Made by a program: the position numbers and the translations under genes. The notes under the pieces are model-generated. The model did not search any database, had not been told where the DNA came from, and saw nothing but the letters and a program-made list of their open reading frames with translations. A DNA stretch of 63,344 nt, the filler included. It is 9 parts of 9 records of this genome, joined end to end, with 100 filler letters (N's around TTAATTAATTAA, not from the genome) between each part and the next. Parts side by side here need not be neighbours in the genome. Positions count along the whole stretch, not along the records: positions 14,857 to 27,337 come from SRR31147125_67359; 8 more parts are not named here. One strand, written 5' to 3'. Below are positions 14,857-59,746 of this stretch, piece by piece (position 1 is the first letter of the stretch; each line of letters opens with the position of its first letter).

Positions 14857-16897
14857 GGTCCTGGGGGCCGCCGCCGCCCACCGGCGCGTAAACAAAGCCG
14901 GGCATGATCTTATCGGTGACGAAGGCGCGCATGGCCACCTGTCCGCGGGCCGTTTTGATCACCACCAGGTCGCCGTTCTTGATCCTGCGTGTTTCGGCGT
15001 CGGCCGGATTCATCTGCACCATGGGGTCGGGATACTTTTCGATGAAACTGGGAATGGCTCGCAGGCATGACTTCATGTCCGGCTTGAAAGGACCGGTTCC
15101 CAGGATAAGCGGAAATCGCCTGTGAAGATCCGGATCGCTCATCGGCGTTTCGTCGGACTCCTGGTAAACGGGCAGGCCGTCGTAGCCGTACTGCTCCAGG
15201 ATACGGGATTTTATTTCGAACTTGCCCGATGGCGTTTCGAAACCGGGCCGGCCGTCGGCGCGCAACAGCCCCTTTTCCCATTTGCGATAGGCCAGGGGGG
15301 CCTGCGGCAGGGCGAAGACCTTCTTGTCGGCGAGCATCAGATCGGCAAGGCTTGTCCCTGATTTGGCCAGGATATCGGCCAGCAGCACATCTGGATGCCG
15401 GGGGAACTGGTCGCCATAACCCAGGCGGTCGGCCAACTCCACCAGGATCTGGTAGGCGGGTTTGGACTGTCCCACCGGTTCGATCATCTGTTCCCGATAA
15501 CGGATGGCATTGCCGTAATAGCAATAGGAGGCCTGCTCAAAGGCCGTGGTGGCCGGCAGCACCAGATCGGCATAGGCTGCATCACGGGTCAGTTGCAGGT
15601 CGATGCTCACCAGAAAATCGAGTTTTTCCAGGGCCCGTTGCCACAACGTCGGGTTGGGCCAGGCGGTGAGCAGGGAGGCGCCCAATACGATCAGCCCTTT
15701 CACCGGATAGGGATCCTCGTCGATGATGGCCCGCGGCAGCAAGATGGCGTGGGGTTCTCCGCCGCAGTAGCGGGCGTAGACCGGGAACTTGCCCGCGCCG
15801 ATGGAGCGGTCAAAACCGGGCGTGGCCAATTGTCCCTCGGTGGCCAGCGGCAGGATGCGGCCATTTCCAAGGAAACAGCGTCCGCCTTCCACGTCCAGTT
15901 GGCCGGCCAGGGCCCACAGCACCATCACGGCGCGAATATTCTGCACACCGCTCTTGGTGTACTCCAGCCCGGTATACATGACGTAGCTGGCGCCCTCGGC
16001 GTCTTCGATCCGCTCTGCCAGATCCTCGATGGTGTCCGGGGCGATACCGGTCAGCTCGGCCACGCGCTTGGGAGAAAAATCCCTGACGTAGTCGGCGAAA
16101 TCCTCGAACCCGACCGTCCATTCATCCACGAAGGCCTTGTCGTAGCGCCCGTCGCGGATGAGGATATGGCTGAGCCCCAATGCCAGGGCGCCGTCCGATC
16201 CCGGTCGGATGGGAATCCATTCGCTGCCGGGAAGCTCGGCGGCTGCGGTTTTGCGCGGATCGATGACGATAATCTCGGCCCCTTCGTCGGCTGCGGTCTT
16301 GAGTTGTTCGAACATGGCCGGCGGGGTCGAGGTGGACGGATCGGTGCCCCAGACGATGACCAGATCGGCATTGTCCACGTCGGAGAACATGTCTATGTGC
16401 AGGCAGCCCATGGTCAACTTTGGCGCCAGTACACCCAGGGAGGTGTAACAGGGCGCGCCCACGCCAAACGTGTTGGGTGAGCCATAGGGAAAGAGAATGC
16501 TGGTGGCCAGGTAGATTTCGGCGCCCTTGAGCTTGAAGGCGTCCTTGAATGCCCGTTCGTAGGAGCCGGTGCCGGCGTAAAAGGCCATTGCTTGGGGACC
16601 AACGGTGGCTTTAATCTCACCAAGCTTATCGGCGATGATGGTGTAGGCCTCGTCCCAGCCGATGGGTTCGAAGTCATACCCGCCTTTAGGCCCGACCCGC
16701 TTCATGGGCCGGGTGAGGCGTTTTTCCGAATAGACCATTTCTTCGACACTGTCGGCGATAGGGCAGAGGATTTTACCCAGCGGCACCTCGGGGTCGGGGG
16801 TAAGGCGAACGATCCGGTCGTCTTCATCGAAATGAACAATGGCGCCGCATCCCGGGCTGTGAAAGCACAGCCCGCAGATACCGTGTTCGGTTCTCAA
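14857..16897 (-). CDS. Cytoplasmic Mo/W-bisPGD enzyme of the acetylene-hydratase-like group (3' truncated); candidate MES-like sulfur-inserting enzyme
   Basis: N-terminal 4Fe-4S motif CGLCFHSPGC...LCP, no Tat signal, putative Cys metal ligand in GAPCYTS, IRPGSDGAL, ADLVLPA, TPSGKFE, molybdopterin-binding C-terminal domain. Confidence 0.85.
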
Positions 16898-16973
16898 ACA
16901 ATCCCTCCTTTAAATTTTAGCAAATTTAAGAATTGCTAAAATTTATAAACTTTTTTCTGTGGATGGGCATTCG

Positions 16974-17918
16974 TTATTCCCGACGGCCCACCAGATATTG
17001 GGACGTTATATGTTCCCATAAGTTTTCGGTCTTGCGGATTTTCCAGGCGACATTGCCGTCGTCGGTGATGCCCAAGGGCGGGTCGAAAACACCGAATTCG
17101 CCGGCGAACAGGCGGCGCATGGTATCGATCCCGCGGGCGCTGTACTGGGTGTTGCCGTTGCCACTGAGCCAGCGTTCAGGGAGGGAGACCGCCTCATCCC
17201 AGGAGAAGGGGTCTGAAAACAGAAACATGGCGGAACGATCCCGCAGCACGCGATCGATTTCCGTGAGATGTTTCAAGGGGTCGGGAACTTTTTCGAGCAA
17301 ATTGATGGCCGCCGCCGTGGCAAACGCGCGCTTTCGAAATGGCAGGGCCAGGGCGTCGGCGACGATAAAGTCCACCCGGCTGAAGTCCTGGTTGTCGTCG
17401 AAACGATGGCTTCTGGGATCGGTGAGGTGGCCTTCTACGATCAAATCGAATGAAATCCGCTTGCCCATGAGAATCTCGCGGGCCTTGCGGATAAAGGCGA
17501 TTGAGGTGTCCAGGCCGATCACATGGTCGTGGGTTGCGGCCAGCTCGAAAGAGAGCCGTCCCACGGCACAGCCCACATCCAGGGCATCGCCTTCGGTGGG
17601 TTTGAAACCGGCCGACCAGACCTGGTAGGCCTGTGTGGCCTCAGGATCGTTCAACAGATCGCCGAAGTGGCTCCACATATAGGCGGAGAGCATTCCCGGC
17701 GCGTTATAACCCCGGTCGTCCTTTAGAATATCACGTGTCTTTTCCGGCAGCAGCACGGCAATGCCCTGGCGGATGGGATAGTTGCCCCCGCAGTGGGGAC
17801 AAGCCATCTCGCCATCCACGACATCATCCGCCCGTTTTTCGCGGACGGTCAAGTTCAGTGGCTCTTCGGAATCCAGGCACTGTGGACAAATCAGTTTGTC
17901 CGCCACCCATTTTTTCAT
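16974..17918 (-). CDS. SAM-dependent methyltransferase resembling the OvoA C-terminal (mercaptohistidine N-methyltransferase) domain, with N-terminal Trm112-like Zn finger
   Basis: ICPQC...CPHC...YPIRQGI; ALDVGCAVGRLSFEL, GLDTSIAFI, VEG, NLLEKVPDP, SDPFSW...WLSG, VAWKIRKTENLWEH. Confidence 0.8.
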   Translation of the reverse strand: MKKWVADKLICPQCLDSEEPLNLTVREKRADDVVDGEMACPHCGGNYPIRQGIAVLLPEKTRDILKDDRGYNAPGMLSAYMWSHFGDLLNDPEATQAYQVWSAGFKPTEGDALDVGCAVGRLSFELAATHDHVIGLDTSIAFIRKAREILMGKRISFDLIVEGHLTDPRSHRFDDNQDFSRVDFIVADALALPFRKRAFATAAAINLLEKVPDPLKHLTEIDRVLRDRSAMFLFSDPFSWDEAVSLPERWLSGNGNTQYSARGIDTMRRLFAGEFGVFDPPLGITDDGNVAWKIRKTENLWEHITSQYLVGRRE

Positions 17919-18269
17919 GGTTGTTCACCTATTTTGCAATTTTTGGGGTGTCATTTAGACCATCAGGGAATTTAAACAGGCGTCATGCGAAGTTGCTATA
18001 TTTGCTGCTGATGAAGAATGTTCACATCCGAAAAAGTCACAACCGGGTTGTTCCCCCGAGAACGTGGGAGTGGCCGGCTACGGTCGACACCGTTTGTTCT
18101 CCTGTCATAAGCTACCGCAAGCAATACGAAAAACGATTAAGTCCATCACAAATAAAGGTGCCAGTATACATGCGGATCAGATGGGATTCAAGGGGACATA
18201 TGGAATAAAAGCAGAACCGATGGAACCATGTCGAGATTTCCTGATTGTCGACGTTGGTTGAAATGGTGT

Positions 18270-18801
18270 TGTGAAAGCAATTGCCAGAGTAGATGCCGGG
18301 ATCCATGATCATGTCCAGCAACACTATATCCACCGGTTGCCTGCGCACAGGCTCGATGGCGGCCTCGCCTTCGCTGACCGACACGCCTCGCCTGGCCAGG
18401 CTCGACAGGTCCTGAACGATGTTGGCGGCCCGTTCGCCGGAGCGTTGAATCGTGCGGATGGGCTTCTGCAGCGGGCTTTGCGGTGGAAGATCAATCAAGA
18501 TCAGTTCGGGATAGCTGACCAGGCCTGACTGGATATTGTTCAGGTCGTGGGCGACACCACCGGCCAGCATGCCAATGGCTTCCATTTTCTGGGCGCGCTG
18601 CAACTGGTCGAGCAGTCTTCGTTTTTCTTCTGCCGCTGTCATTTGTTGCGTGATGTTTCTGCCGATACCCAATGCCAGCTGGTCCGATACCGCCACCATC
18701 CGACATTCATAGTGCTGGGTGGCGCCGTTGACAGGGAACTGGTACTCGAAGATTATTACCGAGCGGCTCTTGAATGTCCGTGACCTCTTTTTGCCGCGCA
18801 T
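18270..18801 (-). pseudogene. Internally deleted hybrid PAS-histidine kinase-receiver remnant
   Basis: AQKMEAIGMLAGGVAHDLNN (HisKA) is joined directly to the receiver fragment GEAAIEPVRRQPVDIVLLDMIMDPGI; the HATPase domain is absent. Confidence 0.75.
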
Positions 18802-19147
18802 GCTCGCGCTTGCGAATTTTATCGGCCATATCGCTGAATCGGCGGGCGATGTTGATCATTTTTTGTTTCTTCGAACACGGCCCGCCACAGGCGGATGACA
18901 TGGGGTGACGTTGGTTTCGAGAAGGCGATATATTTAACAATTGTCATGATTATTCCAAATGCGAATTAAAGGTTTTGTGATTCGCCGCGGATTTGCCTAT
19001 CGTCCTTTGGTAGGTTGCGGTTTGTCAATTCGAAACATCGTCATTTTTGATGCACCGCGCTGCCAGAAACCCTTGCTCCGACAGAAAGGATGCTTACCGT
19101 CAACAAATCGACCGACATTATTTCAACCAACTTTCCTGCTTATATAA

Positions 19148-21657
19148 ATGGAGGTGCCCGTGACAGCAGCCATCACACCGACGGCATACACCCTCGTCAT
19201 CGAGCCGGATCTGGATCGTTTCCAATTTACCGGCCGGATGACAATGACCGCCAAGATCCGAGACCCCCTCGACACCATCAACCTGGATTGCGCCGAACTG
19301 GCTATCTGGCGGTGCCGCGTCGAGACGGATGGCAATCCGTTTGCCGACTGTTCATTTACGCTGGATCCGGCCAGTGAAAAACTGACCGTCGATCTGCCCG
19401 AAGCCCTGTCGGGCGATGTCCAGCTGACCATTGATTACGTCGGGCGGATCAACGATCGCATGGCCGGATTCTATCGCAGCCGCATCAATGGCGGCGACCA
19501 CCCCGATCATATCGCCGTAACCCAGTTTCAGGAAAGCGACGCCCGCCGTGCCTTCCCCTGCCTGGATCATCCGGCGCGAAAAGCGGTTTTTACGATTACC
19601 ATGATCATCCCCGGGGCGCTGACGGCCATTTCCAATACCGGCATCGACAGCGTCACGGAACTCGACGACGGCCGCAAAAAGGTTGTTTTCCGTCCGACGC
19701 CCAAGATGTCCACCTACCTGCTCTTTTTCGGCGCAGGACCCTTTGAGATTCATGGGGATGACCAAGACCCCCGGGTGCGGGCCGTGTGTTTGCCGGGGAT
19801 GGGGGATCAGACCGGTTTCGGCCGCCGGTTCGGGCGCAAAGCCCTGGCCTATGGAGAGGATTACTATGCCATTGATTATCCCCTGGACAAAATGGACCTG
19901 ATCGCCGTGCCTGATTTCGCCTTTGGTGCCATGGAAAACTGGGGCGCCATCACCTTCCGCGAAAACCTGCTTCTGCATGTGCCCGGTGTGACCTCGCGCG
20001 AAGGCGAGTCGCGCATCTGCGAGGTCATCGCCCACGAAATTGCCCATCAGTGGTTCGGCAACCTGGTCACCCCCGAGGACTGGAAGTACCTCTGGCTGAA
20101 TGAAAGTTTCGCCACCTACTTCGGTTACGGCATGGTCGATCACCACCATCCCGATTGGGACGTCTGGCATCAATTCGTCCGCGGCCAGACCGAAACGGCC
20201 TTGACCCGTGACGCCCTGCGGGAAACCTTTGCCATCGAAATGCCCGGGGACGCACAGGTGGCCATCACCACCAGCACGGCTCCGATTATCTACAGCAAGG
20301 GGGGCAGTATTCTGCGCCAGCTGGAGGCCTGGATCGGAGCCGATCATTTCAAGGCGGGGCTCCGGCGGTACCTGACGGGATTTGCCTATGGCTGTGCCGC
20401 CAGCCACCACCTGTGGGAATCGCTGGCCGCGGCATCCGGCATGCGGGTGGACGCGCTGATGAAGAACTGGGTCACCCAGCCGGGTTTTCCCGTGATTACG
20501 GCCCGTAAAAATGGCAACGCGCTTACCTTGAGCCAGCGCCGGTTTACATACCTGCCAACCGATGCCGACCAGACCTGGATGGTGCCGGTAACGCTGGTCG
20601 CTTATACAGCCGACGGCAGCGCAACCCCCAGACCCTGTTGATCGACCAGGCGGACACGGATCTTACCCTGCCGGCGGACACGGTGGCATACAAGCTCAAC
20701 CCCGACCAAACCGGTTTTTATCACACCGCTTACGACGATACCGACAACCTTGCCGCTCTGGGCACCATGATCGGCAACCAGAAATTGTCGGCCATGGATC
20801 GCTGGGGCATCCAAAACGATCTGTTCGCCCTGGTCAAGGCGGGGGTCGCGCCCATGGCGCGTTTTCTGGCGTTGGCTGAGAACTATCTTGCCGAGCCGGC
20901 CTACCTGCCCCTTTCCAGCCTGGACGGCCACCTGTTCGAGGCCTGCCTGGTGTTGCGGGGCGATATCCGAACCCGCACCGCCCACACCATCGAAGCCCTG
21001 GCCAACACGGCGCTGAAAACCATCGGACATCTGCCCGCAACCGGCGAAGCTCCCACCACGGCCATGCTGCGCGACCAGTTGCTGGTGCATGGGGCGCTTA
21101 GCGGCAATGCCGCGCTGCTCGAATTTTTGACCGACCAGTTCAAGGTCTTCTTGGATGGCGCCCCCATCGCCGCGGATATTTTTCGTAGTGTCGTGACCGC
21201 CGGTGCGGCCCTGGGCGGGGAAACGGACCTTGACGGCATCATCGATCGCTTCGAAAAAAGCTCGGTCGAGCACGAACGCATGACCCTGGCCGGCGCCCTG
21301 GGCGCTTTCGGCAAACGGGAGCTGCTGGAACGCGCCCTGGATTATGCCTTGGATAAAATTCCCGATCGTATCCGATTCCTGCCGCTGGTGGCGTCAGCTG
21401 GCAACCCGGCGGCCGTTGACTATCTGTGGGCCTGGTTCGAAGCCCATCTGGAACGTATGCAGAATATGCATCCGATGCTGTTCGAACGGGTCGTGGCCGC
21501 CTTTGTGCCCGGTCCCGGGCTTACCGATCCCGAGCGCACGCGGGCGTTTTGCGAAAGATTGCAGGCGAAACAGCCTCGCCTCAAAGATGTTTTCGCTTTA
21601 TCGCTGGAACGGTTAGCTGTCAATAACGCCTTCCGCCGGCGCGAACGAATTGCTTAG
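19148..21657 (+). CDS. pepN: M1 aminopeptidase N with ERAP1-like C-terminal domain (homopolymer frameshift near 20628)
   Basis: ARRAFPCLD, GAMENWG, HEIAHQWFGNLVT...WLNE, YSKG; one extra C joins ORF 20638-21657. Confidence 0.92.
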
Positions 21658-21760
21658 GGGGGACCGGGAAAAGCGGTGGCATTTTTGAGTTCTGTTTTTC
21701 TTTTACATATGGAGCTTGAACATATGGATGTCTCCACAACCATTAATCAGGAGTGATCGC

Positions 21761-22840
21761 ATGTTTGAACAAGGTGCTATACGGCCACCCAATGAGGCGT
21801 CGAGTTTGCTTGTCCGGGTGACGCGGAATTGTCCGTGGAACCGGTGCCATATTTGTCCGCCCTTTAAAGGCAAAACGTTTTCCAGAAGACCGGTCGAGGA
21901 TGTTAAGCGAGACATTGACATGATGGCGGAAACCTATAAAAGCCATGCCCGCCGGTTTACCGCCGCCTTTCTTCAGGACGCCGACACGTTGATCCTGCCC
22001 ACCGACGAGTTGGTGGAGATTATGACCCATATCAAAAAGATTTTTCCAAGCGTTGAAAGAATCACCACATACGCCCGGGCAAAATCGATGAAACTGAAAA
22101 GTCAGGAGGACTACCGGCGGTTAACCGAGGCCGGCCTGCGCCGGATCCATTCGGGCATGGAAAGCGGCTCGGCCGCCGTTCTCAAGCTCATCAATAAAGG
22201 AAATCAACCCGATGATATCCTTGAGGGAGGACGAAAGGTGGTGGCGTCCGATATTTCCTTGTCCGAATACATTATGCCGGGGGTTGGGGGAAAAGACTTA
22301 AGCCGGGAGCATGCATTGGAAACAGCGCGGCTGCTCAATCAGATCCGTCCGGATTACATTCGGGTGCGAACCTTTGCCCCGCATCCCCTGTCGCCGATGC
22401 AGAAGATGATTGATGACGGCACCTTTGCACCCATGAACGACGAGGAGGTGGTCCAAGAGATTCGCCTGCTCTTGGAAAACCTGGATGAAATGCCGACTCA
22501 TTTTCGGTGCGGGGATTTTAGCATGAACCTGCTGATGCAGGTGGATGGGCGCCTTGATCAGAAAAAAGATGAGATGACCGAAACGATTGACCGGTATCTT
22601 TCCTTGAGCCGGGAGCAAAAACAGGCATTTTCACTGATCCAACGATCCTATTCCCGGGAAACACCTTTGGATGTTGTGCAGGATAGGGATATCGTCGCGA
22701 AGTTAAAAAAGGATCTCAAAAAGCTCGAGGATCGGGAGGAAGGCGGGTTTGACAAACATATTCGGACGCTGATGAGCTATCAGTTACCGCAGCCGCAGAC
22801 GGATTGCTGGGAGATTTTACCAGGGCGCGCACTCAATTAA
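21761..22840 (+). CDS. Radical SAM protein (HemN/YgiQ-like, Cx4Cx2C)
   Basis: IRPPNEA...TRNCPWNRCHIC, GMESG; AGGAG upstream of ATG 21761. Confidence 0.85.
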   Translation: MFEQGAIRPPNEASSLLVRVTRNCPWNRCHICPPFKGKTFSRRPVEDVKRDIDMMAETYKSHARRFTAAFLQDADTLILPTDELVEIMTHIKKIFPSVERITTYARAKSMKLKSQEDYRRLTEAGLRRIHSGMESGSAAVLKLINKGNQPDDILEGGRKVVASDISLSEYIMPGVGGKDLSREHALETARLLNQIRPDYIRVRTFAPHPLSPMQKMIDDGTFAPMNDEEVVQEIRLLLENLDEMPTHFRCGDFSMNLLMQVDGRLDQKKDEMTETIDRYLSLSREQKQAFSLIQRSYSRETPLDVVQDRDIVAKLKKDLKKLEDREEGGFDKHIRTLMSYQLPQPQTDCWEILPGRALN

Positions 22841-23227
22841 TCACTTGGCATAAAAGGTCGGCATGGCGGCTTTTTACGAAGGTATCCAGTGCATACCCTA
22901 TAATTTATGCCGAAAGATATCCTGGGATCATGGATCTGGCCAATCAGACGTTGCGAGATATAGCAGGAAAACATATCCGTAAAGCCGATGCCGGGGCCGG
23001 TGGCAGCCAGGCCAACCTTTTTATGCCCTTATCGAAATCGAAAGGAAATCGGACGTGGAGATGCAAACTGGATGGTTACCGACTTGCGGTCAATGATAAT
23101 CGGCGCCATGGAAAACAGGAAGAACCTGAAACCTTCTATAGCCCTTATACTAACCGGTGACTCCGATAACCATCGCCGATCCAGATAAACCTGAGTTACA
23201 TGCGATTGTCCTGGCCGCCCATCTTGG

Positions 23228-23995
23228 TCACCCTGCCTCGTGGCGCGCGATGGCGTCGCGCACGTACGGGTAGACCGTTTCCACGATACGGGTGTACCCA
23301 TCAGCCGTGGGATGCAGCTTGTCCGGCTGATTGAGTGCGTCGTTGCCGGCCACCCCCTCGAGGAAGAAGGGAATAAACACGAGGTTGTGCTTGTCGGCGA
23401 TCCATGGGTAGATTCGGGAAAAGGCGCACGTGTACTCGGGCCCCAGGTTGGGCAACATCTGCATGCCGGCCAGCACCACCTCGATGTCGCGGGCTTTCAG
23501 GAAACCGACCAGGTAATCCAGGTTGGCCTTGAGCAGTTCGGGATCCAGCCCCCGCAGACCATCATTGGCGCCGGTCTCCAGGATGACGATGTCCGGGTCC
23601 AGACGGTCGATGACCCACTCGATGCGTGATTTCGTACCGCTGCTGGTTTCCCCGCTCACACCGGCGTTGACCACAGCATAGTCGTGCCCGTCTGCCTTCA
23701 GGCGGCGGGCCAGCCGGGCCGGATAGGCCCGATCCTCGGCGACGCCCAGGCCCGCGGTGAGGCTGTCGCCCAGGGCCACGATCGTGCCGGTGTATGTTGG
23801 CGTATGTTCTGCAGTCGGGCTTGTTACGCGTTCCGGCGAGGATTTTTCACTGCACCCCAGAATCACCAGGAGACCAATCAGCGACACTACCATCCTTTTT
23901 ACCAAGGGGCGCTGCCGACGGCGGACGATGGCCCTCCAATCGGTTTCGATAAAAAGGTGGTTAGAAATGAAATGGGTAAGGCCGTTTTTATTCAT
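23228..23995 (-). CDS. tesA: Arylesterase/TesA SGNH hydrolase, probable lipoprotein
   Basis: GDSLTAG, NAGVSGETS, GANDG, DKLHP; lipobox ILGC. Confidence 0.9.
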   Translation of the reverse strand: MNKNGLTHFISNHLFIETDWRAIVRRRQRPLVKRMVVSLIGLLVILGCSEKSSPERVTSPTAEHTPTYTGTIVALGDSLTAGLGVAEDRAYPARLARRLKADGHDYAVVNAGVSGETSSGTKSRIEWVIDRLDPDIVILETGANDGLRGLDPELLKANLDYLVGFLKARDIEVVLAGMQMLPNLGPEYTCAFSRIYPWIADKHNLVFIPFFLEGVAGNDALNQPDKLHPTADGYTRIVETVYPYVRDAIARHEAG

Positions 23996-26483
23996 TTTGT
24001 TGCTCCCTTAGATACACGACCGGTTTCTTGACCACGATGGACCGAGACGCGGCCATGCCCACCCCGACGGTCAGCAGCACCGTCAACCCGACCATGGCCA
24101 GTGATGCGGGAATGAAGGGTCGATAGCCGATATGCAGTCTGACCGCACACACATAAAAGGCGCCGGCCTGGGCCATGATCAGGGCCAGGGCGCTGCTGAG
24201 CAGGCCGATGAGAAGATTCTCCACGGCAAACACACCGAAAACGAAATGCCTGCCCGCCCCCAGGATCTTGTAGTAGACCGACTCCACCACCCGTTCGGCC
24301 CGCGTGGCCAGCACCGCGCTGACCAGAATCATGATGCCGGCCGCGATGCTGAATATGCTGAAGGCGCGGAGGATTCTCGCCAGGCGCCCCATCAGCTGCA
24401 CGAAGCTGCCGATGGTTTGGGACATGTCGATCACGCTGATGTTGGGAAATTGTGAGACAATCTTCAGCTGCAGGGCACCGACCCGGTCTTGCGGTACGCG
24501 CAGGGAGGCGAAAAGGGTCTGGGGGGCGTTTTCCAGTACCGCCGTCGGAAACACGAAGTAGAAAAAGGGGCTCAGGGACCGGTTGCCGCGGGTGCGGATG
24601 CTGGAGATGCGGGCGGTCAGGGGAACACCCTGGATCTTGAAATGCAGGCGGTCGCCGATTTTCATCTCCTGCATGCCCACAACGCTGTCCATGACCGACA
24701 CCTGGGGCTCGTTCCAGTCGCTGCGAAACAGCGTACCGCCATCGATCAGGGTTTCATCGTCCAGCAGGGTTTCCCGATAGGTCAGGTTGAATACCCGTGA
24801 CAGGTTGTCGCGCCGATTGCTGCGTTCACGACTGTGGTCGATGATCTGGTCGTTAATCGCCGAGATTCGGGCCCGGATGATCGGGAAGAACTGAATCGGA
24901 CGGCCGATGGCGGCGCTGAACGCCTCGGTCTGGGTGGGTTGGATGTCCACGAAAAAAGCGTTGGGCGAATTGGCCGGAAAGGAACGTACAAAGGTGGCAT
25001 TGAGATTTTTCTCGATCAAGTGATCGCCGAAGATTACGGCCAGGGCCACGGTCAGGGTGATCATGATCGCGCGGGTGGCATTGCCCCGCCTGAACAGCCC
25101 GCGGATGGCCTGGCGCAGGATCAGATGGCGGACCGGAACCCGCCGGATCACGGCCAGGGCCGGCTGGGCCAGCAGGGCGGCGGCCAGAATCATGGCGCCG
25201 ATGGCGCCCACAAAATAGAGCCCGAAGCGGATGTCCCGCATGTGCCACAGCACCAGGCCGAGAAAAAAGAGCAGTGCCAACAGGCCGGAAAGAAGGTCGG
25301 GCCAGCGGCTGGCGTTCGACGCCGGCTGCCGGTTGAAGATCGTCAGCGGCCGCATCTCCCTAAGCCGGTACAGGGGCAGGAGTGAGAAGAGGGCCACCAC
25401 GGCAAATCCCAGGGCGACGGCTTCGGCGATGCCGGCCCAGGATATGACCAGGCTCAGGTGATCGGGCAGGAACGGGGCCAGCAGATGTCCAAGGCCGGAC
25501 TGGGCGGCCACGCCGGCCAGGATGCCCGCCCCGGTGCCCACGGCGCCCAGCAAAAGCACCAGCAGCGTGAAATGAATGGTGATGAAGCGCCCGGTGGCGC
25601 CCACGGTTTTCATTACGGCGATGGAGCGCTGTTTCTCATCCAAAAACGCCTTCAGGGTGCTTTGAATGCCCAGTCCGGAGACGATCAGGATGAAAAGGCC
25701 CACCAGTTTCAGGAAGAAGAGAAAATTGTCCAGAAAGCGTTTGATTGCCGAACGGGCGGTAAGATAGGTGTCGATGCGCACCGTATCGCCCGAAACCGTC
25801 TGCCTGAGGTCTGTGGCCACGGCATCGACCCGGGCCGGGTCCAGCACCTTGACCAGCACGCTGCGGTGGATGCGGCTGCCAGTGGCCATCAGGCCGAGGG
25901 CTTCCAGATCCGCGGCGTTGATGAAGACGCGCGGGCCGAAGGAGAAACGTTCCAGGGGGCGATCCGGTTCGGCGGTCACCACGTCGACGATGCGCAAGGT
26001 GGTGTGACCGACATCAAGCCGGTCCCCCACGATGAGTCCCGCGCGATCCAAAAGGGTCTGCTCGACGATGCAGGCGCCGGGGAGCAGCACGGCCTTGAAT
26101 TCGTTGCCCGAGTGCAATACGACCCGGCCGTAAAAGGGATAGCCCGCTTCCACCACCTTCAGGCTGGAGAGTACCGAGGCTGATTTTTCAGGGGCACGCA
26201 CCACGGAATAGAACTCGTGAACGGCGGCGTCGAGGATGCCGCCCTGATCCACCAGGCGGTCGATGGCGCGGGTCAGAGAGAGGGGCATGGGATCGTAGGA
26301 TCGAATGATCACATCGGCGGCATGCAGGGTGCGGGCATCATCCAGCAGGGCCTTGCCCATGCTGCGCGAAAACCCAGAAAATGCGGTCAGGGTGGTCAGC
26401 GAAAGGGCCACACAAAGCACGAACAGGCCGGCCTGCTGGGAAGAGCGCCGCACCTGGCGGAGGATGGTGGACAGGTGTCGCAT
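23988..26483 (-). CDS. YbbP-like FtsX-family ABC permease
   Basis: YPFYG, FFVDIQP, FNLTY, two FtsX TM blocks; ybbA-ybbP-tesA context. Confidence 0.88.
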   Translation of the reverse strand: MRHLSTILRQVRRSSQQAGLFVLCVALSLTTLTAFSGFSRSMGKALLDDARTLHAADVIIRSYDPMPLSLTRAIDRLVDQGGILDAAVHEFYSVVRAPEKSASVLSSLKVVEAGYPFYGRVVLHSGNEFKAVLLPGACIVEQTLLDRAGLIVGDRLDVGHTTLRIVDVVTAEPDRPLERFSFGPRVFINAADLEALGLMATGSRIHRSVLVKVLDPARVDAVATDLRQTVSGDTVRIDTYLTARSAIKRFLDNFLFFLKLVGLFILIVSGLGIQSTLKAFLDEKQRSIAVMKTVGATGRFITIHFTLLVLLLGAVGTGAGILAGVAAQSGLGHLLAPFLPDHLSLVISWAGIAEAVALGFAVVALFSLLPLYRLREMRPLTIFNRQPASNASRWPDLLSGLLALLFFLGLVLWHMRDIRFGLYFVGAIGAMILAAALLAQPALAVIRRVPVRHLILRQAIRGLFRRGNATRAIMITLTVALAVIFGDHLIEKNLNATFVRSFPANSPNAFFVDIQPTQTEAFSAAIGRPIQFFPIIRARISAINDQIIDHSRERSNRRDNLSRVFNLTYRETLLDDETLIDGGTLFRSDWNEPQVSVMDSVVGMQEMKIGDRLHFKIQGVPLTARISSIRTRGNRSLSPFFYFVFPTAVLENAPQTLFASLRVPQDRVGALQLKIVSQFPNISVIDMSQTIGSFVQLMGRLARILRAFSIFSIAAGIMILVSAVLATRAERVVESVYYKILGAGRHFVFGVFAVENLLIGLLSSALALIMAQAGAFYVCAVRLHIGYRPFIPASLAMVGLTVLLTVGVGMAASRSIVVKKPVVYLREQQNE

Positions 26484-26489
26484 AACCGG

Positions 26490-27190
26490 TTATCCTCCGC
26501 CTTTGGATTGTGGCCGTCGATTCAGGTCCTTCGCCAGGCGCCCGTCCTTGAGGGTCAGCACGCGCGGGGCGGCATCGGCGATTTCCGGGTTGTGGGTGAC
26601 CAGCACCAGGGTGGCGCCGTGTTCGTTCTTCAGATCGATGAGCTGGTTGAACACCATGGCGCCGTTCTCCGAATCCAGATTGCCGGTGGGTTCGTCGGCG
26701 AAAATCAGTTTGGGCCGGTTGATCAGCGCCCGGCACAGGGCGACGCGCTGTTTCTCCCCCCGGAAAGCTGGCTGGGCAGATTCTTGGCCCGATCCGACAA
26801 CCCCACCTGTTCCAGCAGCACATCGGCGCGCCGGGCGGCATCGCGATGGCCGCCCAGCTCGGCCGGGAGCATGATGTTCTCCCGGGCCGTCATGGACGGC
26901 ACCAGGTGGAAGGCCTGAAACACGAAACCGATGTCCCGGTTGCGCAAGGGGGCCAGCTCCTCCTCGGTGGCATGGGTCATTTCCCGGCCGTCGATGAACA
27001 GTCGGCCCGCCGTGGGATGATCCAGGCCGGAAAGCAGGGTCAGCAGGGTGGTCTTGCCGCTGCCGCTGCTGCCCTTGATGACGATGAATTCACCCGGTTG
27101 CACGGCCAGGGAAACGTCCGCCAACACGGTAATGGTGCGGTGGTTCAGTTGATAGGTTTTGGTGAGGTTGCAGGCTTCGAGGATCGGCAT
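26490..27190 (-). CDS. YbbA/LolD-like ABC ATPase (frameshift in the LSGGE G-run near 26757)
   Basis: GSSGSGKTT, GFVFQAF, LSGG; continues as RVALCRALINRPKLIFADEPTGNLD. Confidence 0.9.
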
Positions 27191-27526
27191 GGGGGGCCCG
27201 TTATTATTTGATTAGGATCGTTGAGATCGTTAATAGCGCGGTTTCGCACACAACATAAGGCGTTGTTCCGATTTTTCAAACGCCCGATGATTGACTGTCG
27301 GAGCGGGCGTAAGCGTCTATTAAACCCCACTCATGGTNNNNNNNNNNNNNNNNNNNNNNNNNNNNNNNNNNNNNNNNNNNNTTAATTAATTAANNNNNNN
27401 NNNNNNNNNNNNNNNNNNNNNNNNNNNNNNNNNNNNNTTTTTATTCTATATTTACCCTACTTGATTCTGATTAAACTTTTTGGTTCAAACTTTGAACTCT
27501 TAATGCTCAATATTATCTTTGGGCCA

Positions 27527-28165
27527 ATGCTTGCATACCTTACCATATTTACTACATCGTTTGTAATTGCTTTTAGCGGAGCAATGATGCCAGGACCTTT
27601 TATGACCATGACCATTGGCGAAAGTGTTCGCAGTGGCCCTTGGGTGGGCCCTAAAATGATTGCCGGGCACGCATTGCTTGAAATGGCATTACTGGTTGCC
27701 ATATTTTACGGACTCGCTCCTCTTTTCGAAAAAGATATATTTTTTGTAATTATTGCATTACTTGGAGGTGCTATTATGGTTTGGATGGCGCAAAGTATGT
27801 TTCGTTCGCTACCAAAACTAGAGATAAATACCACGGCAGACACAAAAAAAACAATGAACATTTATTTGGCAGGAATTTTAATGAGCCTGGCAAATCCATA
27901 CTGGATAATTTGGTGGGCAACCATTGGTCTGGGCTATGTTTTACATTCGCAAAAGCTTGGATTTTTGGGAATTGTCCTCTTTTTTATCGGTCATATACTG
28001 GGCGATTTGGTGTGGTATTCTGCAATTTCGGTTGCTGTGGGAAAGGGACGAAAATTCTTCGGAAATAAAACTTACAGGATTCTAGTAGGGACTTGCGCAG
28101 GTTTTCTTGCACTTTTTGCAATTTGGCTGATTTACGATGGCGTGATAAAATTTGCTCATTTATAG
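27527..28165 (+). CDS. LysE-family translocator
   Basis: SGAMMPGP, GHALLE, NPYWIIWW; about 6 TM helices. Confidence 0.88.
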   Translation: MLAYLTIFTTSFVIAFSGAMMPGPFMTMTIGESVRSGPWVGPKMIAGHALLEMALLVAIFYGLAPLFEKDIFFVIIALLGGAIMVWMAQSMFRSLPKLEINTTADTKKTMNIYLAGILMSLANPYWIIWWATIGLGYVLHSQKLGFLGIVLFFIGHILGDLVWYSAISVAVGKGRKFFGNKTYRILVGTCAGFLALFAIWLIYDGVIKFAHL

Positions 28166-28346
28166 ATGGGTAATTTGTAACAAAACCGAAGACAGATTGT
28201 CTTTTTGCCTGTTTTTCCATTAAGTAAGTCATGCCCATAATTACTATCAAAACAGAATTTATTCAGGAATCAATCTTCATTATCTTAGTAAAATCATTTT
28301 GCATTTCGTAACTTGTTGTTAGACAGCGGGTAGATAAATAAAAATT

Positions 28347-29006
28347 ATGTATAGTAATTCCAATATTCGAATTGTAATTGCCTGCGAATTTGCAGTGTTC
28401 CGAAATGGATTGAAATTATTACTTGAACGTGAAAAAACATTTTCGATTATTGGAGAAGTAACCAATTTGAATGATACATTTAATATACTTAAAGAAACTA
28501 ACCCCGACATTATAATCATCAATTTAAGTATCACCTCCGAATCAGTAAATTCTCTTTGTATAAATATTCATAGTAAATATCCTGAAATACCTATTTTGCT
28601 TTTTTGGGAAGATTCGTTTGAGCTTTCGGTTGCCGACTTAATTATTAATGGTGTTAGAGGAATAATTTGGAAGGACAATTCTGATCTAGACGTAATTGAA
28701 GCCATAAAATGTGTTACAACTGGAGGCTCGTTTTTCGAAGATCCAAGTAACTGTAAGTTTAATTGTCACTTGTCGAATAAATTGTGCGATAAAAAAGAAG
28801 CTGAGGAGTTAACCGCTATTCTTAGTAAACGTGAAATTGAGGTTTTGAAATTAATATCCCGAGGATTAATGTATAAGGAAATTGCTGATAGCTTAAATAT
28901 AAGTTCCAGAACTGTTGAAGCTCATAAAAATCATATTCTAAAAAAGCTTAATCTGAATAACAAGAATGAGCTAATAAGATATGCCATTGAAAATATGGTT
29001 TTATAA
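28347..29006 (+). CDS. NarL/LuxR-type regulator with degenerate (pseudo-)receiver domain
   Basis: LSKREIEVL...IADSLNISSRTVEAH LuxR HTH; receiver has ACE for the acidic pair and PDIIIIN (Asn at the phospho-Asp position). Confidence 0.88.
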   Translation: MYSNSNIRIVIACEFAVFRNGLKLLLEREKTFSIIGEVTNLNDTFNILKETNPDIIIINLSITSESVNSLCINIHSKYPEIPILLFWEDSFELSVADLIINGVRGIIWKDNSDLDVIEAIKCVTTGGSFFEDPSNCKFNCHLSNKLCDKKEAEELTAILSKREIEVLKLISRGLMYKEIADSLNISSRTVEAHKNHILKKLNLNNKNELIRYAIENMVL

Positions 29007-29053
29007 CTACTGTCCTGCTAATTTTGAAAACATTCCGAATTATTTAAAACACA

Positions 29054-29124
29054 TAGGCGTAAACACCTACAAAGAATAGGTTATAGCACTGATTGACTTG
29101 ATAGGGCCTGGCAAAGTAATTTTG
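29054..29124 (+). promoter_or_regulatory. Tandem NarL-type sites plus Bacteroidota -7 promoter element
   Basis: TAGG-N8-CCTA (29054-29069), TAGG-N8-CTGA (29077-29092), and TAATTTTG (TAnnTTTG) at 29117-29124. Confidence 0.55.
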
Positions 29125-29165
29125 ATTCACAAGTTTTATTAATTATTCAACTAAAATTACTTACC

Positions 29166-29882
29166 ATGAAAACATTAATCTTATCCTTGTTAATAATGTG
29201 TTTGTCTTGTGGAATTTTGTATTCTCAGAATAACCAGATTCCATTAATTGGGACAGAAGTTCCTGCTTTTACCGCCAATACTACCAATGGCGTGTTGAAA
29301 TTTCCCGATGATTTTGGAGATAGTTGGAAGATTCTGTTAAGTCATCCAAGAGATTTTACACCTGTTTGTACATCAGAAATATACAAGCTTGCACAAATGC
29401 AGGACGAATTCAAAGAACTAGATGTTAAAATACTGATAATTTCAACCGATGGAGTTTCGTCACATTTTAGGTGGAAAGAATCAATTGAAAGTATTGAAAG
29501 AGAAGGAATAGCACCTGTAAAAATTGAGTTCCCGTTTTTGGACGACAGAAGTGCAAAAGTTTCTCGTTTGTATGGAATGCTGGATCAGAAGAGCAGAGAT
29601 GTTAAAGATGTAAGGGGTGTGTTTATTATTGATTCCGATAATATTGTTCAATCGATTTTATTTTATCCAATGAAAGTTGGTCGCAATTTCGATGAAATAA
29701 AGCGTGCTGTTATTGCTCTGCAAACGGTTGATACGCGTGTGTTAACACCAGCGAACTGGAATCCCGGCGACGATATACTTGTGCCTGTTTCGCCACACCT
29801 TGATATTGCAGTAAAAGATAAAAGTACAATTTCTAAAAACTACTATAATATCGGTTCGGTAATGTGGTATAAGAAACTGTAA
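29166..29882 (+). CDS. Prx6-type peroxiredoxin with N-terminal signal peptide
   Basis: SHPRDFTPVCTSE, RGVFIID, YPMKVGRN, TPANW; leader MKTLILSLLIMCLSCGILYSQ. Confidence 0.9.
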   Translation: MKTLILSLLIMCLSCGILYSQNNQIPLIGTEVPAFTANTTNGVLKFPDDFGDSWKILLSHPRDFTPVCTSEIYKLAQMQDEFKELDVKILIISTDGVSSHFRWKESIESIEREGIAPVKIEFPFLDDRSAKVSRLYGMLDQKSRDVKDVRGVFIIDSDNIVQSILFYPMKVGRNFDEIKRAVIALQTVDTRVLTPANWNPGDDILVPVSPHLDIAVKDKSTISKNYYNIGSVMWYKKL

Positions 29883-30020
29883 ATTTCGGATGATATTAAT
29901 GACCTGATAAAACATGGGAAACTCCAGTGAGTTTCCCATGTTTTGTTAGAAATTTTGAAGATGGCAGGTATAACTTTGTTAGCCGAACCTGCCCGATTAA
30001 ATTTTATCGAACTAATTTTT

Positions 30021-30689
30021 TTATTCACAAAAAGCTGCTTTGGTTTTAAGCGAATCTACAATTTCATATGGGATAGTCAAATCTCCAAAACCGCTCCCCA
30101 AATCAACACCCGGTTTGTTTGTTCCGTGAAAATCAGTTCCGCCTGTGGCAATTAGTCCGTACTTCGCAGCAATTTTTTTAAGCTGATTTATTTCTTTACC
30201 AGAGTGAGTTGTGTAATAACATTCAACACCATTTATTCCGTAATTGGCAAGCTCCCCAATAAGTTCATCCAAGTCTTCCATCGACCAAAAATATTCTTTC
30301 GGGTGTGCCAATGAAGAAATGCCTCCGTATTTGGAAATGATATTTATAGCTTCTTTCGGGCTGCTCGAACTTTTACGAAGCTCTTTTTCTGCTTTGGTTA
30401 AAATATTTTCGAGTTCCTCGGTTGTTTTATCCATAAAATACGCCAAAATATGAATGCCAAATGGATGTCCCGGAGCGTAAGTCGATACTTCCATTCCCGG
30501 AATTAATTCAAGAGGGAGTTGAGATTCGCAAATATAATCGGCAGCTTCCTGGATGCCTCTCATTGTATCATGATCGGTAATTGCAACCGCAGAAAGTTTC
30601 TTCTTAATGGCATAGTCTACAAGTTCTTTTGGAGAGTAGCTTCCGTCGGAGGCGGTTGTGTGAATGTGTAAATCGATAGTTTTCATCAC
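30021..30689 (-). CDS. PHP-domain phosphoesterase (TrpH/YciV-like, short form)
   Basis: IDLHIHTTASDG, AITDHDT, LAHP, TGGTDFHG. Confidence 0.88.
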   Translation of the reverse strand: MMKTIDLHIHTTASDGSYSPKELVDYAIKKKLSAVAITDHDTMRGIQEAADYICESQLPLELIPGMEVSTYAPGHPFGIHILAYFMDKTTEELENILTKAEKELRKSSSSPKEAINIISKYGGISSLAHPKEYFWSMEDLDELIGELANYGINGVECYYTTHSGKEINQLKKIAAKYGLIATGGTDFHGTNKPGVDLGSGFGDLTIPYEIVDSLKTKAAFCE

Positions 30690-30995
30690 GACATTAAACT
30701 TTATTGATTAATAAATTGAAAAGAGAATTAACGATATAAAAGTAATGAATTTTGTTGGTCGACATAAGTCTGTTTAAAACATGTGTGCAGAATAATGTTT
30801 GAGTTGTAGTTGTGTTTCAATCAATTCGGATGAAAGTATTGAAACAAGTGATTTGAGAGGCAGTATTTATTTTTTTGTTAAGTTTTTGCTGCTACCACTC
30901 AAATTTGTTTATTCTGAAACTCCTCTTATTTTTTAGAATGGGCATAATGAGGGGATGAAAGTAGAGGATGTATCTGCATTTTGTTGAAGTAAATT

Positions 30996-31120
30996 GTTTC
31001 AGCCTTTCAGGCTGAGATTACCACGAGGCAGACATTATCCCAACGCGATGCTTTGGGTTTTGGTGTGAAAGGCTTTCAGCCTTTTGAGATGTCGGGCAAA
31101 ACTGGCTGAAAGTCTGAAAC
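30996..31120. repeat. Degenerate REP-like palindromic element
   Basis: Hairpins TCAGCC-TTTCA-GGCTGA and AAAGGC-TTTCA-GCCTTT, central CCCAACGC-GAT-GCTTTGGG, terminal inverted GTTTCAG.CTTTCAG. Confidence 0.55.
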
Positions 31121-31235
31121 ATTATAAAAAAGCAAAATTTATAAAATGGTGGTAATTATTTGCTTGCAAGAATCTGTCATTGTCATCATAATGCAATGGA
31201 ATGAAAGAATCTTCTCCATTATTAGCTAATTGTAT

Positions 31236-32003
31236 TTAACATGTTCCTTCCAGCCAATTTTTAAAAGTCCTTACCTTTTCGCGAGCCACCAAAAAATCAT
31301 CCTCGTTGGCATGTTCAACTTTTAGTTTTAAGCGCGAATTGCTGTAAGCAACCACATCGGAAATGCTTTGCAGAGCCACCAAATATTTACGGTTTATTCT
31401 GAAAAACTGTTCGGGATTTATTATGCCCTCCACCAGTTCAAGGCTTTGATCGAGTAAATAATCTTTTCCATCAGTAAGTTTAGCGTAAGTTCCTTTTTCG
31501 AAACTGTAGAAATAAAGAATATCCTTTGTTTCGATAACCCGCAAATGTGTTCCCACTTTCACCAAAAAACGCTCTTTGTAGCTTTTCTTTTTTAGCGAAT
31601 CCACAACTTCTCGAAGAATGTCTGGCGTAAGACTACTGTTTCCCGGCTGTGCAAGTTTATCGAATTTCTCAAGTGCTTTTTGTAGTTCCTCGCGCTCAAT
31701 GGGTTTTAAAAGATAATCAACGCTATTCACTTTAAATGCACGAATGGCGTAATCGTCGTAAGCCGTTGTGAAAATTACCGGACTCGAAAATTCAATCTGC
31801 TCAAAAATTTCAAAACTTAAACCATCTCCCAGTTGAATGTCGAAAAAAGCAAGGTCGGGCGCATCATTATTTTGCAACCATTCCACTGCCGATTTTATTG
31901 TGTCGCAAACAGCCGCAATTTTTGCTTCCGGCCTCAATGCCGAAATATGTGCAGCCAGTTGTGCCGCTGCCAATGGTTCGTCTTCTACAATTAGTATGTT
32001 CAT
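31236..32003 (-). CDS. LytTR response regulator
   Basis: ILIVEDE, FFDIQL, FTTAYD, DYLLKP, FFRINR. Confidence 0.93.
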   Translation of the reverse strand: MNILIVEDEPLAAAQLAAHISALRPEAKIAAVCDTIKSAVEWLQNNDAPDLAFFDIQLGDGLSFEIFEQIEFSSPVIFTTAYDDYAIRAFKVNSVDYLLKPIEREELQKALEKFDKLAQPGNSSLTPDILREVVDSLKKKSYKERFLVKVGTHLRVIETKDILYFYSFEKGTYAKLTDGKDYLLDQSLELVEGIINPEQFFRINRKYLVALQSISDVVAYSNSRLKLKVEHANEDDFLVAREKVRTFKNWLEGTC

Positions 32004-32210
32004 TTCTTCCAGTTGCGAGTCCCGCTCTATGAGCTGCGAGTTTTGGTCTATTCCGTTTTTATATTTTGGGAGAAGTTGATTGTAATTTGTGGTGATTATA
32101 TTGAAAAATATTGTTTATTCAATAACAATAAATTCCTACTTAATCTCCAGTAATTACTTCAATCAATCCCCTCAATTTTCAGTAAATCAATTCTTCAATC
32201 CTTCAATTCC

Positions 32211-33287
32211 TTAATCTTCCAGTCCTTCAATCCGTATCAACGGCAAACGAACCCGAAAATACCCTCCGTTTTTCGAAATAATCATTTCCTTTCCAGTCAG
32301 GTATTCGTAGCGTCCGGCAAGGTTTTTAAGTCCTGTGCCACTTGTTGTTTCCTGCGTTTGTTTTGGTTGAAGATTATTTTCCACAATCAACTCGTAATCG
32401 TCGGAGATAGCAACTACAATTTTAAGTGCATTGGCCTGCGAAATTTCGTTGTGCTTAATGGCGTTTTCTACCAGCGCCTGCAACGATAGTGGAATTACCT
32501 TTCCATCTACCTTTTCGTTGGCAATAATATCCACTTGTAAAGCCTCGCCAAAACGAATTTGCTGCAGGTAAATATATTTCTTTACAAAATCAATCTCTTC
32601 TTTCAGCGAAATAATATCGAGGTCTTTAAAATGTAGCACATCGCGGTAAAATTTCGAGAGTTCGCGGTTGAATTCTTTGGCCTTCGAAATGTCAATATCC
32701 ATTAAACTGCCCAAAACATTCAGGCTATTAAATAAAAAATGCGGATTTATCTGGTCTTGCAAAACCTTATATTGCAACGATAACGATTCTCTTTTTACCT
32801 GTTCTTTTTGGCTCACTTCTTCGCGCCAGGCTCTGAAAAAAGATATCGCGTAAATTATAGAGGCTACAATTACAAAAATGATGTATTCTGAAATGATTGT
32901 GCCACGGTTGTATTCCATAAACTGATCCCAGCTGCGTTCCATTACGTAAATAAACCAGAACCAGTTAACGGTCCATATTACAATACTTGAATATACGAAG
33001 TGCATTGCCAAAGCCCCAAAAACGCTGCGTACCGGACGATTAATCCAATCGATAAATCGTTTCTCAAACCACCCGGAAAGGTAACCGTTGGCGAACAGTG
33101 GAAGACCAAGGCTAAGAGAATAGCCTGCATTCCAAACATAGCTCATGAACGACATTTTTAAGGTGCCACCCATTAATACCGTAGTGGTTAAGCCAATTAA
33201 AATGGAAACAACAACAGCAATAAACCAATTAATTCCGGTGGACTTTTTCATGCAAGTTTCGTCGTTTGTATTTTTTTGAGTTTTCAA
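32211..33287 (-). CDS. LytS/YehU-family sensor histidine kinase
   Basis: TM N-terminus, QINPHFLFNSLN, QIRFGE, LVENAIKHN, GTGLKNL. Confidence 0.92.
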   Translation of the reverse strand: MKTQKNTNDETCMKKSTGINWFIAVVVSILIGLTTTVLMGGTLKMSFMSYVWNAGYSLSLGLPLFANGYLSGWFEKRFIDWINRPVRSVFGALAMHFVYSSIVIWTVNWFWFIYVMERSWDQFMEYNRGTIISEYIIFVIVASIIYAISFFRAWREEVSQKEQVKRESLSLQYKVLQDQINPHFLFNSLNVLGSLMDIDISKAKEFNRELSKFYRDVLHFKDLDIISLKEEIDFVKKYIYLQQIRFGEALQVDIIANEKVDGKVIPLSLQALVENAIKHNEISQANALKIVVAISDDYELIVENNLQPKQTQETTSGTGLKNLAGRYEYLTGKEMIISKNGGYFRVRLPLIRIEGLED

Positions 33288-33450
33288 GATAGAGAATTTT
33301 AAGAAAGAAGAAATAAAAAAATTGCTTATCCGTTATCCTGCCAGTAATNNNNNNNNNNNNNNNNNNNNNNNNNNNNNNNNNNNNNNNNNNNNTTAATTAA
33401 TTAANNNNNNNNNNNNNNNNNNNNNNNNNNNNNNNNNNNNNNNNNNNNAC

Positions 33451-59467: not shown

Positions 59468-59488
59468 TACCAAAAGGAGGAACAACCA

Positions 59489-59746
59489 ATGAGAAGCATT
59501 ATTAAAATTGCTGTCTTGTTGCTTATTTCTATGCTATGCAACTTTTCTTTTGCCAACTTGAGTCACATAAAAACTTATCCCGGCTACAAATTGAATGATT
59601 CTGTAGGAAAACTGGCCAATTTGGAAACAGCCCAAATTAAAGCTCTACTCGCAAGGGATTTACTCCCTCGTGATTTTTTCCATGGAATCCCTTGCGGAAT
59701 CAATGAAAAAGGGATTGCATCCCTAACCAGGTTCAAAGTTGTTTGA
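59489..59746 (+). CDS. Short exported hypothetical protein, possibly truncated
   Basis: AAGGAGG RBS and signal peptide; ends after 85 aa. Confidence 0.5.
   Translation: MRSIIKIAVLLLISMLCNFSFANLSHIKTYPGYKLNDSVGKLANLETAQIKALLARDLLPRDFFHGIPCGINEKGIASLTRFKVV

Follow-up and report, generated by a model that had tools for sequence, protein, structure and literature searches.

The one route to ovothiol and ovoselenol of which we know runs through non-heme-iron enzymes that depend on O2. Ergothioneine can be made anaerobically in two known ways, one through EanB and one through MES. The latter is the metallopterin-dependent ergothioneine synthase described from Caldithrix abyssi (CaMES; Beliaeva & Seebeck 2022, PMC9516567). 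Here we describe a gene pair in a stretch of DNA of 63,344 nucleotides (the window), which consists of nine contigs joined by N44-TTAATTAATTAA-N44 linkers. The pair forms the left end of contig 14857-27337 and encodes a class I S-adenosylmethionine (SAM) methyltransferase (MTase) and a cytoplasmic molybdenum or tungsten enzyme of the bis(pyranopterin guanine dinucleotide) type (Mo/W-bisPGD; hereafter the Mo enzyme). Judged from sequence, the two may form an O2-independent module for the synthesis of a sulfur-substituted, N-methylated imidazole amino acid, likeliest an ovothiol-type N-methyl-thiohistidine, and we give this reading an even chance. An earlier, sequence-only reading of the window had proposed that a MES-like sulfur inserter is coupled to an OvoA-type methyltransferase encoded 76 nt upstream and in the same orientation. 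Both open reading frames (ORFs) lie where it placed them, and most of what it inferred is supported; the exception is the desulfurase that it expected to be fused to the Mo enzyme.

The kinship of the Mo enzyme with MES is apparent from several comparisons. By Pfam, the enzyme contains PF00384 and PF01568 only, and it scores far below every cutoff of the NCBIfam functional models. A search for long proteins was done with its first 600 residues as query, with only targets above 1050 amino acids considered and the best 120 matches taken. All 120 were fusions of about 1120-1250 amino acids in which a Mo module is followed by a PF00266 cysteine desulfurase, and their identity to the query was 49-53% across 100% of its length. 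For one fusion, P0197 (1136 amino acids), the alignment with the Mo enzyme extended over 666 residues with 50% identity and 688 bits. In P0197 and in P0185, which is of the same length, Cys14, Cys17, Cys21, Cys48, Cys153, Lys952, Cys1074, Cys1097 and Cys1135 occupy exactly the positions given for CaMES, where Cys153 is described as the metal ligand (PMC9516567). Cys150 of the Mo enzyme aligns with Cys153 of P0197, and it stands in an invariant column, as do C8, C11, C17 and C45.

The motif C..C[FY]HSPGC is present in 120 of the 120 best orthologs, and the Fe-S motif is spaced C-x2-C-x5-C in the Mo enzyme against C-x2-C-x3-C in MES (118/120). Because the Fe-S cysteine motif starts at residue 8, there is no room for a twin-arginine translocation (Tat) signal, and a twin-Arg pattern was found in none of the 120 orthologs. 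The absence of a Tat signal had been noted in the sequence-only reading, as had the CGLCF sequence at the second Fe-S cysteine.

Phylogenetic analysis gave the same picture. In a quick IQ-TREE of 42 Mo enzymes with SH-aLRT support, the window-type clade (13 rows, support 100) and the MES clade (14 rows, support 91) were sisters with a support of 98, and a second stand-alone clade, SA2 (4 rows), joined them in a superclade with support 100. A FastTree analysis to which the C1 family of Mo enzymes (see below) was added, and from which two very long outgroups were left out, returned the same topology with a superclade support of 1.0. The remaining enzymes that resemble acetylene hydratase (ACH) fell outside the MES superclade in these trees. 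The Mo enzyme is thus almost certainly a member of the MES superclade and sister to MES. The sequence-only reading had named, as a point that would speak against it, close homologs that lack a desulfurase and fall outside the MES clade; only the first half of this holds. The SA2 proteins (L084-L087; 699-741 amino acids) are also desulfurase-less members of the superclade, without the KKKK...GCGG tail; at their loci no OvoM-like or EgtD gene was present within 1.5 kb.

The window-type enzymes and MES were further compared in an alignment of 241 rows, comprising 120 stand-alone sequences, 120 MES sequences and the window copy. In 190 columns conservation was at least 95% and the residue was the same in both groups; 29 columns were fixed differently in the window clade. 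Compared with MES, the Fe-S motif is longer by a 2-residue insert, Cys378, Cys459 and Cys611 have been gained, and one MES cysteine has been lost.

The C-terminus of the window copy is cut off by the contig end after residue 680, which agrees with the break at about this position in the sequence-only reading. The 120 best full-length relatives have 69-90% identity. These are 723-768 amino acids long and contain only PF00384 and PF01568, and a pyridoxal phosphate (PLP) domain (PF00266) was found in none of the 120. By this length, the window copy lacks no more than some 55 residues. A fused desulfurase beyond the contig break, as had been anticipated, is rejected: all 120 close homologs are without it, and the search among longer proteins gave only the MES fusions at about 50% identity.

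What the homologs carry instead is a basic tail, conserved in 118 of 120 orthologs, with the pattern ...YKTLLCQ[IV]KKKKR.RRG.A..DP.LGC[GVSAT][GA] and a cysteine third from the end. In short form, the tail ends in LGC[GV]G, as in LGCGG. In the AF2 model of an ortholog, residues 721-735 are disordered (pLDDT <50). The MES fusions have a penultimate cysteine in 120 of 120 cases, and this residue, Cys1135 in CaMES, is essential for the sulfur relay (PMC9516567). We infer that the tail cysteine may be a persulfide-carrying arm that stands in for the desulfurase relay in cis.

The MTase belongs to the Trm112-fused class I SAM methyltransferases, with an N-terminal CPxC...CPxC ribbon and a Rossmann domain. 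The ribbon is recognised by NF038101 (48.9 bits) and PF03966 (23.3 bits, cutoff 22); among 36 family members, C11, C40 and C43 never vary, whereas conservation of C14 is at least 90%. Besides matches to Methyltransf_11/25/31, the best NCBIfam model is TIGR04345 (ovoA_Cterm), with E=1.2e-32 and a match over positions 5-240 of 242. The OvoA-type motifs listed in the sequence-only reading are all present: SAYMWSHFG, ALDVGCAVGRLSFEL, DTSIAFI and VEG, followed by NLLEKVPDP, SDPFSW...ERWLSG and WKIRKTENLWEHITS.

Among proteins of known structure, ranks 1-3 by sequence were taken by OvsM (1.9e-22; 83.2 bits), OvoM (4e-18; 69 bits) and OvoA (4.8e-17), with the next methyltransferases at 4e-8. The AF2 model of the MTase (pLDDT 95.5) gave only OvsM, OvoM and OvoA at Foldseek ranks 1-10, with E values around 1e-22 and the next match at 5e-12; the chains of OvsM and OvoM, which stand alone, reached a TMt of 0.79-0.85, and OvoA, with its 700 residues, one of about 0.30. 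Of the 16 columns in the MTase domain that are invariant within the family, 12 are identical in OvsM by hand reading of the alignments. The nearest characterised relatives of the MTase, by sequence and by fold, are therefore the imidazole N-methyltransferases of ovothiol and ovoselenol synthesis, and the methyltransferases that come next have E values about 10 orders of magnitude weaker. In a library of 1.84 billion proteins the MTase has 51 clusters at E<=1e-30, and in a tree of the MTases the Trm112-fused proteins form one clade, apart from the short OvoM-like proteins.

The conservation of the pair was examined at 51 ortholog loci sampled by the Mo enzyme in genome contigs and at 27 loci sampled by the MTase in metagenome contigs. 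The MTase was present at 46 of the 51 genome loci, in 44 of them directly upstream on the same strand. At three of the five exceptions the upstream sequence is too short to tell, so that 46 of 48 informative loci are paired; in the genomes of the other two a relative is encoded elsewhere, with 65% and 39% identity. At 25 of the 27 metagenome loci the Mo enzyme lies directly downstream, and the remaining two have less than 70 nt of flank, which makes 25 of 25 informative loci. When the ORFs of the 51 loci were clustered, only the MTase and the Mo enzyme recurred and the flanks were unrelated; no desulfurase, transporter or electron carrier was found as a conserved partner. The sequence-only reading, which had listed conservation of the pair as a check and had seen no neighbouring electron-transfer subunit, is borne out on both points.

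Three observations concern individual loci. In L005 and L038 the gene order is reversed, with the MTase downstream and, in one of the two, on the opposite strand; this MTase has only 39-41% identity and groups with C1-linked MTases in the tree. The commonest further neighbour is a generic class I methyltransferase of about 360 amino acids, directly upstream of the OvoM-like MTase at 7 of the 51 loci (e.g., L009:5953-7041), which may provide an extra methylation step in some lineages. In Desulfosarcina variabilis (L001:3885-6707) a formate dehydrogenase alpha subunit (TIGR01591, 812 bits) is encoded directly upstream of the pair, an arrangement that is not conserved elsewhere.

The two genes also co-occur at the level of genomes. 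Among 301 Desulfobacterota genomes, four encode an MTase with 49-84% identity, and these are the same four that encode a window-type Mo enzyme. Five carriers were searched for other genes of the thiohistidine pathways: Desulfosarcina variabilis, Desulfonema magnum, Desulfoluna spongiiphila, Desulfatibacillum alkenivorans and Desulfobacter curvatus. EgtD was found in none of the five genomes, and neither was the OvoA N-terminal domain (TIGR04344) above its cutoff, the best score being 62.7 bits against 400. The only strong TIGR04345-like gene in each carrier is the one adjoining the Mo enzyme, and the MTase orthologs of the five genomes score 105.6-122.8 bits with this model.

The reverse holds for the MES fusions of Desulfobacterota, which have a gene for about 331-350 amino acids directly downstream. 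In 6 of 6 cases tested it was EgtD above the cutoff, so these fusions are genuine MES-EgtD pairs, and an OvoM-like MTase was found at none of 18 fused MES loci. The earlier suggestion that this MTase takes the place of EgtD thus agrees with the gene content of both groups. It is practically certain that the pairing of Mo enzyme and MTase is conserved, in an operon-like arrangement, in sulfate-reducing bacteria.

There is a clear parallel between MES, which has a desulfurase and is paired with EgtD, and its desulfurase-less sister, whose partner is an OvoM-like MTase. Read most simply, the imidazole of un-methylated histidine would be sulfurized by the Mo enzyme and a ring nitrogen then methylated by the MTase. 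By homology with MES, the enzyme of 735 amino acids, with its [4Fe-4S] cluster and the metal of Mo/W-bisPGD ligated by Cys150, would transfer a sulfido sulfur to an imidazole carbon, and the substrate would be histidine instead of trimethylhistidine (TMH). Sulfur might reach the metal by way of the flexible, basic C-terminal arm with its conserved cysteine (...KKKKR.RRG....DP.LGC[GV]G). A desulfurase acting in trans could load this cysteine, or the sulfide or polysulfide that is abundant in sulfate reducers could do so. By homology with OvoM and OvsM, the Trm112-fused MTase would then methylate the ring nitrogen beside the new thiol. Ovothiol A as the exact product is possible, but we would not count on it from sequence comparison. 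Equally tentative is the fuller proposal that the pair represents the first O2-independent ovothiol pathway, with C5 sulfurization of free histidine by sulfide or persulfide that the enzyme's own Cys arm carries, and subsequent N-pi methylation. Its corollary, that ovothiol A or a close isomer may be a low-molecular-weight thiol of marine Desulfobacterales, we put forward with the same reserve.

Several observations weigh against an ovothiol-type product. With TIGR04345, the MTase scores 113.3 bits, below the curated cutoff of 170. The comparison with this model, suggested in the sequence-only reading, thus confirmed a full-length match and OvsM, OvoM and OvoA as nearest relatives, but the protein did not reach family membership. 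The same applies to every relative tested, for which TIGR04345 is the best model and the score is below the cutoff, and by these scores the MTase is not an OvoM equivalog. At least 150 unnamed 50%-identity clusters outscore OvsM in comparison with the MTase.

Furthermore, 24 of the 301 genomes encode an MTase relative of 35-42% identity without a window-type Mo enzyme. The neighbourhoods of 20 of these relatives were inspected (L127-L146, e.g., L131:7142-9205 and L143:5003-9369). Eleven adjoin C1, a family of cytoplasmic Mo enzymes of about 687 amino acids with the Fe-S motif CRLCSACCP, which have 27-32% identity to MES and lie outside its superclade. Six adjoin a B12-binding radical SAM enzyme, four of these also an M19 dipeptidase, and three adjoin neither C1 nor the B12-radical-SAM enzyme. 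The MTase family thus extends beyond a single pathway, and what the MTase acts on does not follow from its resemblance to OvoM.

On the side of the Mo enzyme, the chemistry may differ from that of MES since 29 columns, including several cysteines, are fixed differently. CaMES requires its own fused desulfurase in cis (PMC9516567), so for a desulfurase-less relative any sulfur supply is putative. Among titles and the opening parts of abstracts on ovothiol and Desulfo- organisms, none concerned thiohistidine synthesis by sulfate reducers. A search for a Mo-dependent or anaerobic ovothiol route found none either, subscription journals and supplements being outside its coverage. To our knowledge, sulfate reducers have not been reported to contain ovothiol.

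The same logic of Mo/W-dependent sulfur insertion and SAM-dependent methylation could operate on a compound other than free histidine, such as histamine, urocanate, imidazole-lactate, a purine precursor, a His-containing peptide or another heterocycle, and the methyl group might go to sulfur and not to nitrogen. The sub-cutoff TIGR04345 score, the 29 clade-specific differences and the pairing of MTase relatives with other enzyme types, including the M19 dipeptidase context, are all compatible with such a substrate, and the authors of the MES work speculate that other heterocycles may be sulfurized by Mo enzymes as yet uncharacterised (PMC9516567). On the other hand, in both parent families all characterised enzymes use histidine derivatives, OvsM shares the 12 of 16 invariant columns mentioned above, and no gene that would supply another substrate is conserved near the pair. 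We consider a different substrate rather unlikely.

The Mo enzyme could also be a hydratase or hydroxylase like ACH, or a reductase, in which case the MTase would methylate the resulting hydroxyl or another group. ACH is the closest solved protein (202 bits by sequence), and the AF2 model of a full-length Mo ortholog (pLDDT 91.5) superimposes on it with a TM of 0.83-0.84 at 25% identity, with polysulfide reductase next. The missing desulfurase, and the C1 enzymes that partner related MTases and are no closer to MES than ACH is, would also fit. However, the identity of the Mo enzyme to MES is twice that to ACH (50% vs 25%), the window clade is the strongly supported sister of MES, and the conserved terminal Cys arm resembles the MES persulfide relay. 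In addition, Phe12 follows Cys11 in the CGLCF motif, a stretch that precedes the start of the sequence alignment with ACH; the position directly after the second Fe-S cysteine is that of the catalytic Asp13 in ACH. Hydratase or reductase activity is improbable.

Selenium in place of sulfur, which would lead to an anaerobic, ovoselenol-like selenohistidine, is more doubtful still. The selenohistidine methyltransferase OvsM is the top PDB match and takes Foldseek ranks 1-2, but its lead over OvoM in bit score is small, the habitats of the hosts are sulfidic, and MES chemistry is established for sulfur only. No selenium-handling gene was conserved beside the pair; no search was aimed at SenB/SenC or SelD. 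A role in salvage or degradation, with the Mo enzyme removing or exchanging sulfur on environmental thiohistidines, is the least probable: desulfurase-inactive CaMES still exchanges sulfur between ergothioneine and TMH (PMC9516567), and a desulfurase-less enzyme could act likewise, but it is not evident what a SAM methyltransferase would do in degradation, and the pair has neither a transporter nor a lyase as a conserved neighbour.

If the pair indeed makes an ovothiol-type thiohistidine, this family of redox metabolites would also predate O2 or be independent of it, and the new C-S bond-forming chemistry of MES would cover a second substrate and a design that needs no desulfurase. Sulfate reducers, whose low-molecular-weight thiols are poorly known, would gain a candidate for one of them. 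The repeated pairing of OvoM-like MTases with three kinds of anaerobic C-H-functionalising enzymes, namely window-type Mo enzymes, C1 Mo enzymes and B12-radical-SAM enzymes, would then suggest that a family of anaerobic thio-imidazole metabolites has stayed hidden. Cultured carriers are available in Desulfosarcina variabilis, Desulfonema magnum, Desulfatibacillum alkenivorans, Desulfoluna spp. and Desulfobacter spp.

The positions of the features are collected in Table 1. The start codon of the Mo enzyme is a TTG at 16897 (-), with the AAGGAGG sequence 6 nt before it, and no terminator-like site was found on the minus strand of the 76-nt gap between the two genes.

Table 1. Features of the gene pair and its surroundings, in window coordinates.
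Feature	Position	Strand	Basis or remark
OvoM/OvsM-like class I SAM methyltransferase (MTase, P0002), Trm112-fused	16974..17918	-	ORF, 314 aa
MTase N-terminal Trm112-like zinc ribbon, residues 1-62 (Cys11, Cys14, Cys40, Cys43)	17733..17918	-	NF038101, PF03966
MTase domain matching ovoA_Cterm, residues 75-311	16986..17696	-	TIGR04345 and PDB sequence matches
Intergenic spacer, 76 nt, with Shine-Dalgarno AAGGAGG (16904-16910)	16898..16973	-	sequence
Cytoplasmic MES-like Mo/W-bisPGD enzyme, first 680 of ~735 residues, ends at contig end	14857..16897	-	
Fe-S cluster Cys motif C8-x2-C11-x5-C17...C45	16763..16876	-	four Cys invariant in alignments
Cys150 codon, predicted Mo/W ligand, equivalent to CaMES Cys153	16448..16450	-	invariant column
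Assembly linker N44-TTAATTAATTAA-N44 (contig end)	14757..14856	.	~55 codons missing, conserved tail among them

Elsewhere on the contig of the pair, an M1-family aminopeptidase is encoded at 19148-21657 (+) by two overlapping ORFs in different frames, with Peptidase_M1_N and M1 in 19148-20641 and ERAP1_C in 20638-21657; the split reflects either a frameshift or an assembly error. A radical SAM protein of 374 amino acids lies at 21716-22840 (+), and its place near the pair is not conserved at the other loci. The GC content of the contigs ranges from 0.33 to 0.62 across the window, with 27438-33348 and 58100-63344 being low-GC, and because of this variation the bin is perhaps mixed.

With EanB, the rhodanese-type anaerobic ergothioneine synthase, the proposed system has in common the O2-independent, direct transfer of sulfur to an imidazole carbon in anaerobes. 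The fold of EanB is unrelated to that of the Mo enzyme, and EanB acts on TMH made by EgtD. For ACH we know of no C-terminal Cys arm and no methyltransferase partner. The enzyme of Pelobacter acetylenicus (PDB 2e7z) resembles the Mo enzyme as a single-subunit, cytoplasmic W/Mo-bisPGD protein with one [4Fe-4S] cluster and a Cys ligand, and differs from it by the low identity and probably by the residue after the second Fe-S cysteine, Phe in the Mo enzyme and Asp13 in ACH.

The MTase is to be compared with OvoM, OvsM and OvoA's C-terminal domain, which are N-pi-methyltransferases of 5-thio- and 5-selenohistidine (PDB 9bxl, 9bxh, 8khq; TIGR04345). In addition to the full-length match with the family model and the structural agreement with stand-alone chains (rmsd 2.5-3.9), these enzymes and the MTase have non-Rossmann motifs in common, namely Y..H[FY]G, EG, SP[FY].W, RW[IL].G and IR.T...H. 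The MTase is set apart by an identity of only 21-26%, its sub-cutoff score and the extra N-terminal Trm112-like zinc ribbon. Its partner is a Mo enzyme and not an O2-dependent non-heme-iron sulfoxide or selenoxide synthase, and its hosts are strict anaerobes.

The closest described system is MES. Whereas MES has a fused PLP cysteine desulfurase, the window family has none and ends in the basic LGC[GV]G tail; its Fe-S motif carries the 2-residue insert, 29 columns including the three gained cysteines and the lost one are fixed differently, and its partner is the OvoM-like MTase in place of EgtD, which was not found in the five carriers searched. What the two share is a colinear Mo/W-bisPGD module of about 720 amino acids at 50% identity, the four-Cys Fe-S motif and the metal-ligand cysteine (C150, corresponding to CaMES C153). 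Both are cytoplasmic enzymes of strict anaerobes without partner subunits, with a cysteine at the extreme C-terminus and a histidine-pathway methyltransferase as partner.

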